A stretch of 64,000 nt of DNA from Aulosira sp. ZfuVER01. Lineage in GTDB: Bacteria > Cyanobacteriota > Cyanobacteriia > Cyanobacteriales > Nostocaceae. The position numbers were made by a program, and so were the translations under genes. Of this stretch, positions 14,906-23,860 are shown one piece after another. Position 1 is the first letter of the stretch, and each line of letters starts with the position of its first letter. Location of the stretch: positions 79,393-143,392 of the forward strand of contig JAVRCV020000068.1 in NCBI GenBank assembly GCA_034530615.2, read 5' to 3'. The notes under the pieces are model-generated. The model was not told the origin of the DNA, searched no databases, and saw nothing but the letters and a program-made list of their open reading frames with translations.

Positions 14906-15997
14906 TTACTGGCATTCTTCTGGTGATGGTGTTTTTGGCAAAGATACAGTGGTGTTTTGTAAATTCTCTCGCAATAGCACTTTCAGTCGTTGATTATCTT
15001 CAGCAGCGATCGTTTCACCGTAGTGATGTTGCTGAAATAATTGGCAATAACGGTTTTGTTTAGCACAAATTAAACAACCGTAGGCATTATTACCATTTGC
15101 ACCGCATAGCCGATGTCCCATCACCGGGCCCAAGGAAATATTTTGCTCACTTGCAACTGTATTCAGGATGGAACGTAGCCGTGCTTCAAACTCCATTGAT
15201 AAAAACAGCTTACTTCCTGGTTTTGTACGATCCCATTGCGGCACAATTAATCCCTGTTTTAACAAACTCTCTTCAATTTCAGCTGACATAACAATGTTAG
15301 AGAGAATTACATGGTGGGTAACATTAGGCAAAAGTTTCCTTGCCAATTGCCACATTAAAGTCTCATCAAACCACTGTTCAACTAGAGGACGAAGATACCA
15401 ACAACAGGGAATGCCAAGGTTGACTAAATCTTGTAGCAGTTGTACTCGTCCCTGAATAGAGGCTTGCTCATATCCTGGTTTTAATGGTGGTAGACTAACA
15501 AAAACTGTGACTCGTAGGGAATTCGGTTGAGCTAAAGTAGCTTTGAGGCGCTCTAGAAATGATTTACCAGGGTGGACTTTGGTTGTAATGTAGACCATAT
15601 TCGCTGCTTGACGGTCAATCAGTGCATTCAAAATTGACAGTACACGTTCTCGATGCGCTGGGATAAAGGGATCGGAGTAGTCGCATAGAGAAATTGGAAA
15701 GCCATTTTGTCCCTCTGGAGTAGCAAAAATGCAGTCTAACAACCGATCGAGCAAGTCAGATGGAGCTAAAGTATTCTCAAAATTTTCTGGATGATGATGC
15801 CAGTCACGGTCTTGATGGCAGACACAATAAGCACATTCAACTGGACAACGGTTCAGGGTATTGGGTAGAAATGGATTCAGACTGAAGTATTTAACTGCAC
15901 GTTCTCGATCGGGAATTCCCAGTACAGGAAAGCCATGTAGCATATACTGACTCCCCTGTAATGAAACTTCAGACAGAGTAGATTGATAATTTGCCAT
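14906..15997 (-). CDS. Radical SAM superfamily protein
   Basis: CPVECAYC (CxxxCxxC) motif; SDPF and ITTK elements; extra C-terminal Cys cluster. Confidence 0.75.
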   Translation of the reverse strand: MANYQSTLSEVSLQGSQYMLHGFPVLGIPDRERAVKYFSLNPFLPNTLNRCPVECAYCVCHQDRDWHHHPENFENTLAPSDLLDRLLDCIFATPEGQNGFPISLCDYSDPFIPAHRERVLSILNALIDRQAANMVYITTKVHPGKSFLERLKATLAQPNSLRVTVFVSLPPLKPGYEQASIQGRVQLLQDLVNLGIPCCWYLRPLVEQWFDETLMWQLARKLLPNVTHHVILSNIVMSAEIEESLLKQGLIVPQWDRTKPGSKLFLSMEFEARLRSILNTVASEQNISLGPVMGHRLCGANGNNAYGCLICAKQNRYCQLFQQHHYGETIAAEDNQRLKVLLRENLQNTTVSLPKTPSPEECQ

Positions 15998-16216
15998 AAC
16001 CCTTTAACCATTAATCCATCTACGAAAAATCGCTTACATTAGGGTGGCTGGTGTAAATCTGGAGTGGCAATGATAGAAATACTTGAAAATCATCATTAAC
16101 TATTGCTTAAGAAATCAAAAATACTGAGGTATTATTGCTTATCCTCCAACGTAAATTCAAGTTCCAGGCTGGTAAAAATACAGCTGCCGAAAATTCAACT
16201 GTCAGGCGATCGCAAC

Positions 16217-16855
16217 TTACAAATATAAGGATTGAACAGCCAGATCCTTTAAGGTAATGGTAAAGTTACGCTGCTCTTGTGTAGCAATGAATGCGATAGT
16301 TGCCTCACACGCCACAGCAACAGTTAACATCACCAAATTTCGCGCTAGAGGATAATCACAGACATCATCATTGACATCAGAAGGAACGCGATAAACATCA
16401 TTCCAAATTACTTCTGCATAATCGGCTGCTAGTCCAACATGAAGGCAGGGAATTTTTGAACGATCGGCATAATCTTTCACTGCTTGACGTGACAAGCTGT
16501 TGTCAAAAACATCAATAATTAACTGGCTATCTTGAAGTAGTTGATCTGCATTTGCTGATGTCAACTCCTTTGTTTTGGCATCAACTTTAGTACCAATTGC
16601 TCGGTATAAATTATTTGCTAGGATTTTCGCCTTAATTGCTCCAACATCGGAACGGTAGTAAGGCTGGGTAGAAAGGTTACGTTCCTCAATGCGATCGCGA
16701 TCGATTACCGTAAGTTTATCAAAACCAGACCGAGCCAAGTTTTCTGCAATGTTAGCTCCTAACGCTCCAGCCCCACAAATGGTTATAGGATAATTCTTGA
16801 GCTTTGCCATCACAGCATTGCTGCGGTAAAGCTGTTCGTGAAAAAAAATACTCAT
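16217..16855 (-). CDS. ThiF/E1-like adenylyltransferase
   Basis: GAGALG, DRDRIEERNLSTQ, KAK, DVFDN motifs. Start placed at MSIFF, 5 nt after the upstream stop. Confidence 0.9.
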   Translation of the reverse strand: MSIFFHEQLYRSNAVMAKLKNYPITICGAGALGANIAENLARSGFDKLTVIDRDRIEERNLSTQPYYRSDVGAIKAKILANNLYRAIGTKVDAKTKELTSANADQLLQDSQLIIDVFDNSLSRQAVKDYADRSKIPCLHVGLAADYAEVIWNDVYRVPSDVNDDVCDYPLARNLVMLTVAVACEATIAFIATQEQRNFTITLKDLAVQSLYL

Positions 16856-16860
16856 TGTCC

Positions 16861-17694
16861 TTACCACTCTTGTTGTTCCATCACAGCCACTAAAGATTGC
16901 AAATCAAAATCGCGATCGCGTCCACTCAAGCAAATCCCAGAACTAATTACAGTCAAATCAGATTTAGCGATCGCACTAGTGTGGCGAACACCATCAGCCG
17001 TTCTCCAATCCACTGTCCAGTAATCACCGCGATCGTGAAATTGGCGTAATTCACCGCCACCCATTCGCAATGCTTTTCTTAGCCGTTTTTCATCCTGTTG
17101 CGGTTGTGCAAATCCCTCAATCCGCTGAGTTGCTAATTCATACAATGTCCGGATTTCTGGAGTAATCCCTTTGAACTGTAATTCCTCAGCAGGAGTCAGT
17201 TGCTTAACAGCAGATTGCAGAGTTTCCACAATTGCTGGATCGGTACGGCGATCGATTTCCTCAAACCAGCAGGATTGTCCATTCCAACGAGCGATAACTT
17301 GCTCAAAAACAACACCCTCAGTTACTAGATGTACTGCGATCGGTTTGACTACCTTCAACCGTTGACGCATATCTACTTCATTCACAGGATATGCTAACCA
17401 AGTTTGTCCTCGCAGTTGGTGTGCTAATCTCAGCCGTATTTGGGGAAAGTGTTGCAAGTATTCTGCAATTTGGGGTAAGTCTGCTTCTTCCACAACTGTT
17501 GCTGTCTTCGTATCGACTGGCTGAAAGATACCCCAACCTTCAAATTGATTATGCTTTGGCGTAAAGGTGTAAACCATCCCAGCTACTCGTGTGCGAACTC
17601 GTCCACCTTTGACACAAGGGGCGATAAATTGAGTTGCACACAACTGTGCTTCTGCACTAGCAATTTGGTTGATTAGCTTACGGATGTCAGTCAT
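16861..17694 (-). CDS. Hypothetical protein, C-terminal SGICLSG (possible E2-like Cys)
   Basis: 277-aa ORF tightly coupled to the ThiF gene; family not recognised. Confidence 0.75.
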   Translation of the reverse strand: MTDIRKLINQIASAEAQLCATQFIAPCVKGGRVRTRVAGMVYTFTPKHNQFEGWGIFQPVDTKTATVVEEADLPQIAEYLQHFPQIRLRLAHQLRGQTWLAYPVNEVDMRQRLKVVKPIAVHLVTEGVVFEQVIARWNGQSCWFEEIDRRTDPAIVETLQSAVKQLTPAEELQFKGITPEIRTLYELATQRIEGFAQPQQDEKRLRKALRMGGGELRQFHDRGDYWTVDWRTADGVRHTSAIAKSDLTVISSGICLSGRDRDFDLQSLVAVMEQQEW

Positions 17695-17765
17695 AGCTCA
17701 CGCATAGACGCAAAGAGGATGTTTATACGTCAATTCAGCAAAGTTAGAGAATTTATATAATTATT

Positions 17766-17975
17766 TCCCGCGTGCAAGTTGGTGGAGCATTGCGTGTTCT
17801 CAGTTACTAGGGGGACTCCGCTGGTGAGTTGTTACACACTCTTTCAAAGATGGCTACTTTTAAGCCCATTTTCCAGGTTCTTCGCACTCCCCGTTCACAC
17901 ACGCCCACTGTATTTGACAGTGTTACTTTTCCTCTCGTACTAGTATGTAGGCTCCAAGAGTTAGGGCACGCAGGA
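17766..17975 (-). ncRNA. Scaffold RNA A: carries sarcin-ricin-loop mimic and 23S H42-44 mimic
   Basis: Terminal stem UCCUGCGUGC/GCACGCGGGA; CCUAAC/AACUU loop; CUAGUACGAGAGGA at 17943-17930; 56-nt GTPase-centre-like segment at 17876-17821. Confidence 0.85.
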
Positions 17976-17979
17976 TATT

Positions 17980-18006
17980 TATATAATACAACATACTACA
18001 AAAAAT
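17980..18006 (-). promoter_or_regulatory. Candidate promoter/operator (TGTAGTAT + TGTATTAT) for RNA A
   Basis: Minus strand reads TTTTGTAGTATGTTGTATTATATAAAT just before RNA A; the same motif occurs at 23809-23857. Confidence 0.45.
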
Positions 18007-18178
18007 AAATACCAGAGATTAAAAGAGATATGTTGCAGTAGTGCGATCACTGCCGCTTCATATACCTACTTCATTTCGCTCATCAATATCAACTCCTTAA
18101 GTTGAGCGATCATCCGAATTAGAAAACATAACTTTATTTATGCTACAACAAGTTACATATGTATTAATGAATTAGGTT

Positions 18179-19546
18179 TTGATGATGTCTGAAAATATAT
18201 ATTTCACAAAAAAAGGTAAATTTAGCCATGAGCTAGCATTGAACGATCTCAAAGAAATCCAAACTTCAGTCCGCTCAATCGCTAGTGAAAAACCTTTGAC
18301 GATGAGTCATACAAATTCAGATGGTGTATCAGAGGTTATTGAATTGACTGAATTGCCTTTAGATATTCTTCTTAACCAGAAGCAAAAACAGGTGGTATCT
18401 AACATAGCTAAGAGTTTTGCAAAAGGGAATAGCTTTGAAGAAAATGTTTCTAGTAATTTTATTTATGAAAAGTTTCTGAAATTACTAGCAAAAGAAAATT
18501 TTTATTTAGCTGATACATTTACTGTTTCTGATTCATTATCTCTTTTTGAAAATTTGAGGGTGATAATTGAGCAAGAAATTTCAACTGTAAAGCTGAATAT
18601 TATTACTGTAATTGGGGCATCTCTTAAGAAAGGCAATATCTGTGAAATTGGCTCAATTAAGTTTATGAATCCGTCGGACTTTATTGACAAGCATAAACTT
18701 TTGTTTGAGAGTCTTGTTAATTATAATGAAGGATTGCAAACTTATCTAGAAGTTTTTCATAAATCTGACTTAGTAGCACAGGTGAGCATTAAAAATAGGG
18801 ATACTGCTACATCTAAAATGGTAACAAATGAAATAATGAAAAGAATCTACACCCTTATTAGATTAACTATCCCAAGTAGTGGGGGACGATATAACTTTTT
18901 TGGGACTCTTGGTGAAGAATATTTAGAATCTAGATTTTCTTTCTTATTTCATACTGATTCAAGCAACGAAGAAATAGTAAAATCTATATCAGTTGAACGC
19001 ACAAGTAATCGGTTTTCAGATAGTAATATAGATTTAATAGAAACTATACTTCCTCATAAACAAGTAAATCAATGGTTTACTCGTATTGAGCTAATCATTA
19101 GTAAATTTGTTAATGATAAAAAATTAACTGATTTTGAAAAAAGGATATGGACAGCCCTTTATTGGTATGGAGAATCTATGTCAGAAAGAGAATTAAATCC
19201 TTTGATAATTAAATATGCTACTTGTCTTGAAGCATTATTTAATAGTCGTGAAGGTGGAATAAGTGAACAAATTTCTGAGTTTACTGCTTATGTGGTTGGT
19301 AAAAACAAAGATGAAAGGATGAAAGTCTACAGTAATATTAAGAAACTATACAGCTTAAGATCTACTGCTGTACACGGAGGCTCTGTTGTAGGACATGTGG
19401 ATAGTAATTTTCTATCTCAGATTATGTTAATATGCGAATCTGCATTGCTTCAAATGGCATATTATTCTCAAGAGGATTACTATCAAAATTCAAAAGGATA
19501 CGAAAAATTTGTGCAATACATTCTTAGAGAATATAGGTTTATTTGA
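18179..19546 (+). CDS. HEPN-domain (ApeA-like) ribonuclease
   Basis: C-terminal CLEALF ... LYSLRSTAVHGG (RxxxxH) motif; AT-rich; antisense to its neighbours. Confidence 0.8.
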   Translation: MMMSENIYFTKKGKFSHELALNDLKEIQTSVRSIASEKPLTMSHTNSDGVSEVIELTELPLDILLNQKQKQVVSNIAKSFAKGNSFEENVSSNFIYEKFLKLLAKENFYLADTFTVSDSLSLFENLRVIIEQEISTVKLNIITVIGASLKKGNICEIGSIKFMNPSDFIDKHKLLFESLVNYNEGLQTYLEVFHKSDLVAQVSIKNRDTATSKMVTNEIMKRIYTLIRLTIPSSGGRYNFFGTLGEEYLESRFSFLFHTDSSNEEIVKSISVERTSNRFSDSNIDLIETILPHKQVNQWFTRIELIISKFVNDKKLTDFEKRIWTALYWYGESMSERELNPLIIKYATCLEALFNSREGGISEQISEFTAYVVGKNKDERMKVYSNIKKLYSLRSTAVHGGSVVGHVDSNFLSQIMLICESALLQMAYYSQEDYYQNSKGYEKFVQYILREYRFI

Positions 19547-19579
19547 ATTTAATTAATCTGATTTAAAGGTATTAGTAAA

Positions 19580-19603
19580 CAGGGATGAGATTTACTCATC
19601 CCT
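19580..19603. terminator. Hairpin between convergent HEPN and TROVE-like genes
   Basis: agggatgag-attta-ctcatccct inverted repeat. Confidence 0.6.
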
Positions 19604-19610
19604 ACTAAAT

Positions 19611-21185
<1,575 letters not shown>

Positions 21186-21301
21186 TTAATAAAGGTGTAT
21201 GTGTCTAATTCATCTTCCTTATCTTTCCTTTGCGCTCTTTGCGTCCTTTGCGGTTCGTTTAAAAAGAATCTCACGCAAAGATGGAGAGAGAAAAGATAAG
21301 A

Positions 21302-21702
<401 letters not shown>

Positions 21703-21731
21703 AGTTTACTCATAATTGATAAAGAATAAAA

Positions 21732-21861
<130 letters not shown>

Positions 21862-21866
21862 AAACT

Positions 21867-22653
<787 letters not shown>

Positions 22654-22716
22654 TGAATTCACCTCCATATATGCGATTGAGTTAAGGTATAGGATAAATA
22701 CAATTTAAATAATTGG

Positions 22717-22860
22717 AATTCCGCACAAGTTAGCAAAGCAGTTTTCACAATTGCCTTTACCATTTTGGCTACGCTCCCATATAAGGGAGCGACAGGAATC
22801 GAACCTGCATATCCTTTCACAGATAGTGTGTGTATGCTTCACAAGTTAGGGCGCGGAATT
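22717..22860 (-). ncRNA. Scaffold RNA D: circularly permuted tRNA cargo (YrlA-like topology)
   Basis: Order is T arm GCAGG-UUCGAUU-CCUGU, loop-closed acceptor CGCUCCC-UUAUAU-GGGAGCG, UA, D arm GCCAAAAUGGUAAAGGC. Confidence 0.85.
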
Positions 22861-22876
22861 AAATCTTAAATGTTTA

Positions 22877-23055
22877 CCATGCAAGTTCAAGAAGCTTTTT
22901 ACAACTACGGTCGCTCTTACCAAATATTGGCAGTGGGCACGCACGCTAAATCTGCAAGAGACTTAGAAATCATGCTTCGCTGGTTCGATCGCTCGAATTT
23001 TACTACCTTAGGGCCGTTATCAATGTGTATGTATGCTTCTTGTGTTAGGGCACGG
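22877..23055 (-). ncRNA. Scaffold RNA E: permuted 23S rRNA H67-H71 (H69) mimic cargo
   Basis: AUAACGGCCCUAAGGUAGUAAAAUUC at 23020-22995 and GGUAAGAGCGACCGUAGUUGUAA near the 3' side, inside the scaffold arms. Confidence 0.8.
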
Positions 23056-23068
23056 ATGATTAGGCGTA

Positions 23069-23284
<216 letters not shown>

Positions 23285-23339
23285 TTAAATTACGAATGGC
23301 TTTCTTAATTTTGAATTTTGAATTTTGAATTGGGATTAG

Positions 23340-23548
23340 TGGATCTGATCGGGATTGAACCGATACCCTCCCTGTGAGAGTTGCACTCACACCTCATGCG
23401 AGTTGAAAAAGCTGTGGTAACACACGCAGGAATCGCACCTGCACTTATCGTTTAAAAAGCGATCGCTCTACTATTGAGCAAGTATGTAAGCTTCTTCTGT
23501 TAGGGCACAAGTGAAATCCGGGATCTCTACCGTTAGAGCTACAGACCC
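23340..23548 (-). ncRNA. tRNA-like shell with its anticodon loop replaced by scaffold RNA F
   Basis: Acceptor GGGUCUG/CAGAUCC-A, D arm GCUC-UAACGGUA-GAGA, T arm AUCGG-UUCAAUC-CCGAU. Confidence 0.75.
23393..23511 (-). ncRNA. Scaffold RNA F: tRNA-Lys(UUU)-like cloverleaf cargo
   Basis: CUUGUGC/GCAUGAG stem, CCUAAC/AACUC; D arm GCUC-AAUAGUA-GAGC; anticodon loop UUUUUAA; T arm GCAGG-UGCGAUU-CCUGC; internal ACCA. Confidence 0.8.
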
Positions 23549-23611
23549 AAGTTTGCATGATTGCTCTGCTCTGATTGCAGTCATTGCAACTTCAATCAAA
23601 GTCAAAGCAAG

Positions 23612-23692
23612 TGGAGCCGTCGGGAATTGAACCCGACTCCTGCAACCGTCCGTTTGTTGGTTTCGGAGCAGTCGAACGCCAATCGCGGCCCC
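23612..23692 (-). ncRNA. Minimal tmRNA tRNA-like domain (no tag ORF)
   Basis: GGGGCCG..UGGCGUUCGAC 5' end; GGAGUCGGG-UUCAAUU-CCCGA-CGGCUCC-A 3' end; G3.U70; stemless D loop. Confidence 0.75.
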
Positions 23693-23807
23693 AAAAGTGG
23701 GCAGTGCCTATGAGAGTTGTTAAGCTTCACTCTCAAACAGTGGCATCTATGCAGTTGTCACAGTTATGAGAGGTTGTAGTTTTGCCTCTTGAGGAGGCTT
23801 TTTTGTT

Positions 23808-23860
23808 GATACTACATTTGTAATACAAAAGCTACATGATGTCAAGGGGATACTACAAAA
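23808..23860 (-). promoter_or_regulatory. Candidate promoter/operator of the RNA-array operon
   Basis: TTGACA at 23845-23840 flanked by two TGTAGTATC copies (23857-23849, 23816-23808); -10 assignment uncertain. Confidence 0.45.

Follow-up and report, generated by a model that had tools for sequence, protein, structure and literature searches.

A candidate tmRNA-derived RNA with only the tRNA-like domain, found in cyanobacterial tRNA arrays

Transfer-messenger RNA (tmRNA, or SsrA) is taken to need a tRNA-like half as well as an mRNA-like one, and its tRNA-like domain (TLD), together with SmpB, mimics a whole tRNA. Here we describe a putative RNA gene of 81 nucleotides (nt) that appears to retain the first of these halves alone. 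It lies on the minus strand at 23612..23692 of a 64,000-nt stretch of DNA from Aulosira sp. ZfuVER01 (contig JAVRCV020000068.1, 79,393-143,392 of the forward strand), which we analysed as a whole and call the window; coordinates refer to it unless another locus is named. The genome assembly (G000 in our labelling, in which G, C and L mark genomes, contigs and loci) amounts to 8.03 Mb in 83 contigs.

Tag-less tmRNAs have been described before. Jakobid mitochondria contain tmRNAs from which the mRNA-like region is absent (Jacob et al. 2004, via PMC3590771); these are the only natural TLD-only tmRNAs that we found described elsewhere, and in a 2025 tmRNA database paper, too, the jakobid form is the only tmRNA without a tag region mentioned in the available text (PMC11915505). 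Engineered TLD fragments, in which a short loop connects the 25 residues at the 5′ end of tmRNA to the 34 at its 3′ end, co-crystallise with SmpB (PMC3929946), and together with SmpB they support mRNA-free polyalanine synthesis in vitro (Shimizu and Ueda 2006, cited in PMC3929946). Full-length tmRNA genes occur inside the tRNA arrays of mycobacteria and mycobacteriophages (PMC5966550). In the cyanobacterium Nostoc/Anabaena sp. PCC 7120, the trn operon is induced by translational stress (PMC8421152). Its promoter has been mapped and has 9-nt direct repeats over the −10 box and start site, with more repeats upstream (PMC8421152); the repressor of the operon is TrcR, and the TGTAGTAT site that it protects overlaps the −10 box TAGTAT (PMC10272220). 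Of the 26 tRNAs of the operon, 23 were reported as detected and aminoacylated, and polysome association of its tRNAs is also reported (PMC8421152).

The RNA described here runs from G1 to a discriminator A and begins with a 7-base-pair acceptor stem, in which GGGGCCG (RNA positions 1-7; 23686..23692) pairs with CGGCUCC (RNA 74-80; 23613-23619) to give the G3:U70 pair, the U70 equivalent being RNA position 78. RNA position 81, at 23612, is an A (equivalent to A73), the 3′ strand and discriminator together occupying 23612..23619. A stemless D-loop analogue follows (RNA 8-21; 23672..23685), which keeps GG and UUCGA, aligns to the tmRNA consensus GG...UUCGAC in the Rfam RF00023 alignment, and places G20 and A21 opposite G54 and A55. 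Next comes a central hairpin of 32 nt (RNA 22-53; 23640..23671), which stands in place of helix 2, the tag open reading frame (ORF) and the pseudoknots and is built of 4 + 3 pairs with a small internal loop between them; its A/C-rich terminal loop of 15 nt (23649..23663) is almost invariant among homologues. A 3-nt linker leads from the hairpin to the T arm (RNA 57-73; 23620..23636), which has a 5-base-pair stem and the 7-nt loop UUCAAUU. The mRNA-like domain (resume codon, tag frame and stop) and pseudoknots PK1-PK4 are absent, a single hairpin filling RNA 22-53. The tmRNA signatures listed by an earlier, sequence-only reading of this stretch (the GGGGCCG start, stemless D loop with UUCGAC, short linker, T arm, G3:U70 and A73) are all present from 23692 to 23612 on the minus strand, as is the short arm that it saw as replacing the tag ORF and pseudoknots. 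It was also right that CCA is not encoded, CUU following the discriminator A in the window copy, but this feature is not special: the TLD of the host's ssrA, which is unlike the element in sequence, also has no encoded CCA, and 9 of 39 distinct homologues of the element do encode it.

The Rfam tmRNA model RF00023 covers 23609-23692 on the minus strand from its first to its last position, with 43.8 bits (E 2.5e-15 in a 4-kb scan and 1.2e-15 genome-wide). In the alignment, 316 of the 374 model positions are deleted and 24 nt stand in their stead between the helix-2 strands. For the window element and all four homologues examined, tmRNA was the retained member of the tRNA clan, the homologues scoring 54.2 (L070), 39.7 (L178), 38.5 (L063) and 31.9 bits (L183) and in each case better than with the tRNA model. 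The genome's four tRNA-Ala genes are all located elsewhere, and on the tmRNA model tRNA-Ala genes of this genome reach 24.0 and 16.5 bits, as against 43.8 for the element. Automated annotation passes over the locus: ARAGORN calls neither a tRNA nor a tmRNA nor a tag there, and a default Rfam scan is silent because the score lies under the curated cut-off of 47 bits, so that in the window ARAGORN and Rfam at curated thresholds report just a tRNA-Leu (21760-21834) and a tRNA-Lys (23415-23488). The anatomy given by the earlier reading and its assignment to the tmRNA TLD stand: of the scans that it suggested, Rfam has tmRNA as the best match, if a sub-threshold one, and ARAGORN made no call. The Rfam scan gave no YrlA match over the element.

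A separate, full-length ssrA does exist in the same genome, on contig C37 (128.9 bits, with the tag ANNIVSFARKPALAVA followed by a stop), and there is one smpB (220.8 bits). Each of five other element-bearing genomes likewise has one full ssrA (118.6-131.7 bits) and one smpB, giving six of six, and no dedicated second smpB was found in the six genomes checked. These facts bear on the idea that the element is a decaying remnant, whether a degenerate tRNA-Ala, an internally deleted copy of ssrA or a piece of a split tmRNA, which we regard as highly improbable. The sub-threshold Rfam score would suit a remnant, as would T-loop insertions in some copies and the existence of degenerate second copies (L029, L031 and L032) in which the hairpin is retained and the acceptor and T arm are gone. 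However, the element is not a tRNA-Ala, since it has no anticodon arm; it also has no D stem and no ARAGORN call, and the tmRNA model fits it better than the tRNA model does. Nor is it a piece of a split or permuted tmRNA, since it is contiguous: both acceptor strands lie in 5′-3′ order within one 81-nt unit beside a one-piece ssrA of different TLD sequence, and the model of the two-piece permuted tmRNA (RF04321) gives just 20.1 bits, over the 3′ half. The two fates by which the sequence-only reading might have failed, a degenerate tRNA-Ala and a split tmRNA, can therefore be set aside. Decay is also at odds with the comparison of homologues to which we now turn, where 39 distinct sequences, drawn from several cyanobacterial families, covary and pair almost perfectly.

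When G000 and 60 relatives, 61 genomes in all, were surveyed by BLAST with a 121-nt query, 19 of them had a match, although the one in G049 is merely the 3′ end of a canonical tmRNA. The remaining 18 carriers are G000, all 14 other genomes of its genus, and members of three other genera of the family. The exact 16-nt loop pattern matched at least 120 stretches in a species-genome collection; among the matches listed, at least 33 are TLD-like loci by inspection and the others are chance matches. Record titles among the first 80 matches place the TLD-like loci in cyanobacteria, for example Nostoc, Scytonema, Calothrix, Aetokthonos, Mojavia, Lyngbya and Myxacorys, with further titles naming Leptolyngbyaceae, Oculatellaceae, Pseudanabaenaceae and Chroococcales. 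A covariance model built from 35 distinct sequences (R1) scores the window element at 112.4 bits and, over 151 genomes of the phylum, reaches at least 73 bits in three, G000, G097 and G132 (two copies). R1 matches of 27-35 bits in 15 further genomes are not the element in the 11 that we inspected, being 3′ parts of canonical tmRNAs or ordinary tRNAs. A phage origin was considered and rejected: the exact loop pattern gave five matches in IMG/VR, none of them a TLD by R1. Judged by these searches, the element is patchy across the phylum and fixed in its genus.

For the analysis of covariation, 49 copies from several cyanobacterial families were aligned to the model, representing 39 distinct sequences. 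Standard pairs fill 98.6% of the 739 pair cells (87.6% in shuffles), and 9 of the 19 pairs change on both sides, in 76 cells. All three helices contribute: both-sided changes affect four of seven acceptor pairs (99.6% of cells paired), two of the seven hairpin pairs (97.8%) and three of the five T-stem pairs (98.5%). The covariation score of 0.323 compares with 0.114 in shuffles, none of 500 reaching 0.323, and with at most 0.117 when partners are slid. Although fitting the alignment to the model favours the structure, compensatory acceptor variants are also plain in an unfitted MAFFT alignment. The strong structural support comes from this covariation among homologues, the fold of the single sequence being only modest (−33.3 kcal/mol, z −2.12, with 4 of 200 shuffles equally good). 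G3:U70 is present in 38 of the 39 distinct sequences, the exception (L041) having a 5′ deletion, and the A73 discriminator in all 39. Both are retained across five different acceptor-stem sequences, and this retention on a changing stem supports an alanine identity. On such comparative grounds, we conclude that the 81-nt gene is a real, selected, tmRNA-derived RNA reduced to the TLD, and that purifying selection clearly acts on it in free-living bacteria whose genomes retain a complete ssrA as well.

The hairpin loop is conserved more strictly than the stems around it: of the 16 distinct sequences that came from BLAST or the covariance model (a count that leaves out the pattern-found sequences), 15 have the same 17-mer, closing pair included, and the sixteenth differs by one A-to-G change. 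Two candidate targets of this loop were rejected. Against the 16S and 23S rRNA of the genus relative G003, RNAduplex gave the 17-nt stretch −10.4 and −12.3 kcal/mol, weaker than most shuffles, 96% (16S) and 77% (23S) of 300 shuffled loops binding at least as well. For a partner in trans, the genome offers, besides the element's own antisense, two sites of 13-14 nt, both in ordinary coding frames, where about 1.2 are expected by chance. A specific protein partner for the invariant loop would be our guess.

In other genomes the element sits inside tandem tRNA arrays, with 22 and 34 tRNA genes around the two copies of G132, 16 in G023 and 23 in G097. The spacers around it shrink to 3-4 nt, which, together with the CCA encoded in some copies, fits tRNA-type processing. 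A BLAST search against plasmids placed a copy on pCC7120delta of PCC 7120 (locus L183, 3494-3577; 99.6 bits with R1), between tRNA-Glu(UUC) and tRNA-Tyr in an array of 24 ARAGORN-detected tRNA genes, and downstream of an HNH endonuclease gene. This array is the published trn operon. Full-text searches on short or TLD-only tmRNA and on tmRNA together with cyanobacterial tRNA arrays brought up no description of the element, and it may have been counted as a pseudogene among the "26 tRNA genes and pseudogenes" of PCC 7120; in the available text, the term "tmRNA" is absent from both PMC8421152 and PMC10272220, and "tRNA-like" and "ssrA" from the former. Among 21 pattern-found loci with flanks, 7 hold 17-28 tRNA genes, 3 on short contigs hold 6-9, and 11 hold 0-2, the window being of this last, tRNA-poor type. 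The element-bearing arrays also contain a normal tRNA-Ala(UGC).

The window itself has merely two tRNA genes within 2 kb, below the 20 or so of a dense array. Its cassette is a reduced derivative of a long tRNA array, and the genus has kept the element in 14 of 14 other genomes despite the loss of most array tRNAs. The earlier reading put the element at the head of the array, which holds for the window and its genus; elsewhere the element is internal to arrays of 16-34 tRNA genes. What that reading missed is that the element is a conserved member of the horizontally spread long tRNA arrays of cyanobacteria, that is, of the trn operon. Given this membership, a rescue RNA that works and is induced by stress is no less likely than the mimic of the earlier reading, taken as a passive one.

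Upstream of the element, at 23809..23857 on the minus strand, lies a predicted promoter/operator region with exact matches to TGTAGTAT (23857-23850), TTGACA (23845-23840), TGTATTAC (23827-23820) and again TGTAGTAT (23816-23809). The two exact copies of TGTAGTAT together with TTGACA between 23857 and 23809 have the makings of a TrcR operator, and the region aligns with the one upstream of the PCC 7120 array, the mapped trn promoter. In the window, then, the element would be the first gene behind a homologous TrcR-type promoter. Of the 37 loci with enough upstream sequence, 24 have an exact TGTAGTAT no more than 400 nt upstream of the element, the exceptions being mostly array-internal copies; a simple sigma-70 scan detected no promoter upstream of the element. 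Between the promoter region and G1 runs a leader of about 115 nt (23693..23808, minus strand), which closes with gcactgcc, as does the tRNA preceding the PCC 7120 element at its 3′ end, and the leader may be a remnant. A terminator-like hairpin with a T run lies on the plus strand at 23784-23798, inside this minus-strand leader, and no obvious plus-strand gene ends there. A further exact TGTAGTAT at 17993-18000 (minus strand), just upstream of an rRNA-like module, suggests a second stress-regulated promoter inside the cassette. As for transcripts, four RNA-library runs from three studies provide contigs over the element or over copies in relatives: one contig of 102 nt is identical over 23618-23696, and two of 455-655 nt extend from the element into the next module.

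Being the first structured item behind the promoter in the reduced cassettes, the element could be a processing signal only, a tRNA-shaped punctuation mark, functionless as a free RNA, at which RNase P and RNase Z cut and so shape the operon transcript at its 5′ end. This seems very unlikely to us. Any tRNA-like shape would suffice for such a role, with no need to conserve alanine identity, the D loop and the 15-nt loop across families, and in full arrays the flanking tRNAs already supply processing sites.

On balance we lean towards an alanine-charged element that, together with the host's SmpB and EF-Tu, acts on stalled ribosomes and releases them without an ssrA tag. In outline, impaired translation would lead to its transcription from the array promoter, which TrcR represses; RNase P and a 3′ nuclease would excise it in the manner of the neighbouring tRNAs; it would be given a CCA end where none is encoded; and alanyl-tRNA synthetase (AlaRS) would charge it through G3:U70 and A73. 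The charged RNA, with the host's single SmpB and EF-Tu, would then enter ribosomes whose A site is empty and take over the nascent chain. Since the element contains no reading frame, the outcome would be a tag-free release, whether by drop-off and peptidyl-tRNA hydrolase, by a release-type factor, or after more rounds of alanine addition. We favour this rescue reading on the precedent of the engineered TLD, whose design is nearly the same. A bolder version is doubtful though worth stating: the element may be a stress-induced, mobile, tag-less tmRNA for template-free rescue, adding one or several C-terminal alanines as a backup when tmRNA is limiting or damaged, with the loop recruiting a partner.

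The same structural evidence, from the RF00023 match to the covariation, applies to a competitor or decoy. Such an RNA would bind SmpB, and maybe AlaRS and EF-Tu too, yet bring about no productive rescue; it would titrate these factors away from tmRNA under stress, or else serve as bait or sensor for nucleases and toxins directed at tmRNA or tRNA-Ala. A decoy would suit the cassette that the element heads in the window, with its other translation look-alikes (tRNA-like modules, 23S-like pieces, an L7/L12 paralogue and a TROVE-like protein), and with one smpB in six of six genomes titration would be feasible. We nonetheless think a decoy unlikely. Most lineages have the element not among mimics but among ordinary tRNAs, which are reportedly aminoacylated and polysome-associated (PMC8421152). 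The strict retention of G3:U70 and A73 also suggests that charging matters, whereas a pure SmpB sponge would have no need of it.

Several observations weigh against the rescue reading. The score of 43.8 bits is below the RF00023 gathering threshold, and only one of the four homologues is above it. The GA/GA arrangement at the base of the hairpin, present in 27 of the 39 distinct sequences, is missing in 12. Five copies (L036, L101, L147, L089 and L154) carry T-loop insertions of 22-46 nt, which should disturb a working T loop unless they are removed. The invariant loop is superfluous to a simple rescue model and makes an additional or different partner likely. Three of the 26 "tRNAs" of the PCC 7120 operon went undetected on Northern blots (PMC8421152), and the element may be among the 26. 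The RNA-library contigs give no RNA ends, strand or CCA and could stem from DNA carry-over, which makes them weak evidence of expression; the stable RNA, its processing, CCA addition, charging, binding to SmpB and EF-Tu and action on the ribosome are what we infer. Finally, contig C32 of the same genome carries, at about 178950-181570 (locus L186, 2454-5070, minus strand), a complete array of 28 tRNA genes in the PCC 7120 gene order but without a mini-tmRNA: an unrelated spacer of 91 nt occupies its Glu(UUC)/Tyr junction, and R1 finds no match of 25 bits or more in the array with filters off. Arrays can thus lack the element, and G000 keeps exactly one copy. The T-loop insertions themselves lie at one and the same site in several Nostoc-type genomes and have a GGGAAGGCAAAGCCUAC-like core in common; they are probably a small dispersed repeat.

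Downstream of the element, a cassette spans 16217..23488 on the minus strand, and the order of element, orf69, orf239, L7/L12 paralogue, TROVE-like protein, orf277 and ThiF is the same in the genus relatives G003 and G013. Its features, all on the minus strand, are a tRNA-Lys-like gene (23488-23415, called by ARAGORN), the ORFs orf69 (23278-23069) and orf239 (22586-21867), a tRNA-Leu-like gene (21834-21760, also from ARAGORN), the L7/L12 paralogue (21694-21302; 105.4 bits with TIGR00855, plus the Pfam L12 N- and C-terminal domains), and a TROVE-like protein of 522 amino acids (aa) with a C-terminal vWA domain (21179-19611), which weakly matches the solved "TROVE domain-containing protein" chains 9l5y and 9kop (E 1e-4, residues 71-440). 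They are followed by an rRNA-like module detected by BLAST (about 18032-17701), orf277 (17694-16861) and, overlapping orf277 by 7 nt, the gene for a ThiF/E1-like protein (16867-16217; up to 60 bits with the E1-E2 models of PADLOC). In the distant genome G132, orf69 and ThiF accompany the element with 81-83% identity, which fits horizontal spread. The orf69 product has an invariant C-terminal ...RPEAVYG, and its AlphaFold2 model (predicted local distance difference test, pLDDT, 84) has weak beta-grasp or ubiquitin-like Foldseek matches (E ~0.02). For orf277, 763 representatives were found at E ≤0.001 and no Pfam family; its model (pLDDT 93.6) consists of tandem OB-like barrels with Z 5-5.7 to OB folds of the S17, IF1 and RNase II type, and the C-terminal fold matches an unrelated protein with Z 7.2. 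Together, orf69, orf277 and ThiF could make up a module for ubiquitin-like conjugation or adenylation with a link to tRNA arrays.

Such neighbours raise the question of whether the element is instead a non-ribosomal alanine donor, or a ribonucleoprotein adaptor that acts through its invariant loop, with orf69 and ThiF, orf277 or the TROVE-like protein as candidate partners. A loop that stays invariant whereas the stems vary would be in keeping with this, as would the beta-grasp-like and OB-like models of orf69 and orf277 and the company that orf69 and ThiF keep with the element even in G132. We consider it rather unlikely all the same. No family of enzymes that use aminoacyl-tRNA was recognised in the cassette, and the fold matches are weak. 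The element is intact in PCC 7120, where the four annotated proteins at a distance of up to 3.5 kb include no candidate, and it is likewise intact in G023, which has no candidate within 13 kb downstream. The tmRNA-specific features of the D loop would moreover be needless for a mere donor.

Pieces resembling 23S rRNA are scattered through the cassette, all on the minus strand. A piece at 17821-17865 (45 nt) is 80% identical to 23S 1083-1127 of G003, which we take to be the L11/GTPase-associated region; at 17930-17942, 13 of 13 nt match 23S 2578-2590, presumably the sarcin-ricin loop motif; and at 22995-23020, 26 nt are 88% identical to 23S 1840-1865, which would be the helix 69 region if our assignment is right. 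The G003 counterpart of the first piece scores 51.4 bits on the Rfam large-subunit rRNA model (positions 1093-1148). An Rfam scan of 16000-20500 of the window gave no match at E ≤1, although BLAST shows the rRNA-like piece there. We also observed a repeated scaffold, 5′ GUGCCCUAAC...UACAUAC and 3′ GUGUG...CAGCUUUUUCAACUUGCA, which flanks differing inserts at about 21725-21860, 22690-23060, 23330-23560 and 17700-18032 (minus strand). The inserts include the tRNA-Lys-like and tRNA-Leu-like genes, each with a mismatched acceptor pair, the rRNA-like pieces, and a T-arm/D-arm module in permuted order, which matches YrlA weakly at 22753-22809 (23.1 bits against a cut-off of 69). Two tRNA-like halves with G3:U70, one 5′ (from ~23544) and one 3′ (to ~23334), stand on either side of the tRNA-Lys module. 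Two further ORFs, of 455 aa (18179-19546, plus strand) and 363 aa (14906-15997, minus strand), have no tblastn counterpart in the searched stretch of G003 and G013 and no convincing family match; they look like lineage-specific insertions.

A TLD-only RNA beside a complete ssrA would surprise specialists. It travels with a mobile tRNA array that is induced by antibiotics and stress. Since ARAGORN misses the element and the Rfam threshold catches only some copies, counts of array genes and censuses of tmRNA probably omit it. PCC 7120 is genetically tractable, and its trn operon, inducers, repressor and a deletion strain are published; with the element present in this model strain, tag-free ribosome rescue becomes directly testable, and one may ask whether rescue and tagging can be separated in vivo. 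Two further questions are opened: does the template-free addition of alanine by TLD and SmpB in vitro also happen in cells, and what do "cryptic" tRNA arrays contribute beyond spare tRNAs? If the bolder version of our reading is true, tRNA arrays would supply, in the form of mobile tag-less rescue, what amounts to a bacterial counterpart of alanine tailing that derives from tmRNA.

Compared with canonical tmRNA (SsrA, RF00023), the element has the same G3:U70/A73 acceptor and T arm, a stemless D loop with GG and UUCGAC, and GA/GA where helix 2 begins; it differs in having no tag frame, resume or stop codon or pseudoknots, in being extra to a complete ssrA, and in its location, which is a tRNA array and not the ssrA locus. 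With tRNA-Ala it shares the alanine identity elements and the T arm but not the D stem or anticodon arm. YrlA and other bacterial Y RNAs are likewise small tRNA-like non-coding RNAs, encoded, as is the element in the window, near a TROVE-type protein (PMC4201824). Their 5′ and 3′ ends, however, form the Ro-binding stem and provide no end that can be aminoacylated (PMC4201824), whereas the ends of the element form an acceptor stem with a discriminator. The tmRNA genes in mycobacterial and phage arrays offer the same picture of a rescue RNA gene travelling in a mobile tRNA array, but they are complete and found by standard tools, whereas the cyanobacterial element is TLD-only and missed by ARAGORN. 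The jakobid tmRNAs resemble it as natural, alanine-accepting tRNA-like parts that stand alone, with a G:U third pair and an A discriminator (PMC3590771). They are, however, the only tmRNA of their organelle, mostly in two pieces and a product of reductive evolution (PMC3590771), whereas the element is in one piece, belongs to free-living bacteria with an intact ssrA, and is mobile, apparently stress-regulated and equipped with a conserved hairpin loop. Closest in design are the engineered TLD fragments, which are nearly the same: where those constructs have a UUCG tetraloop, the element, a natural RNA, has a 7-pair hairpin with one internal loop and an invariant loop of 15 nt.

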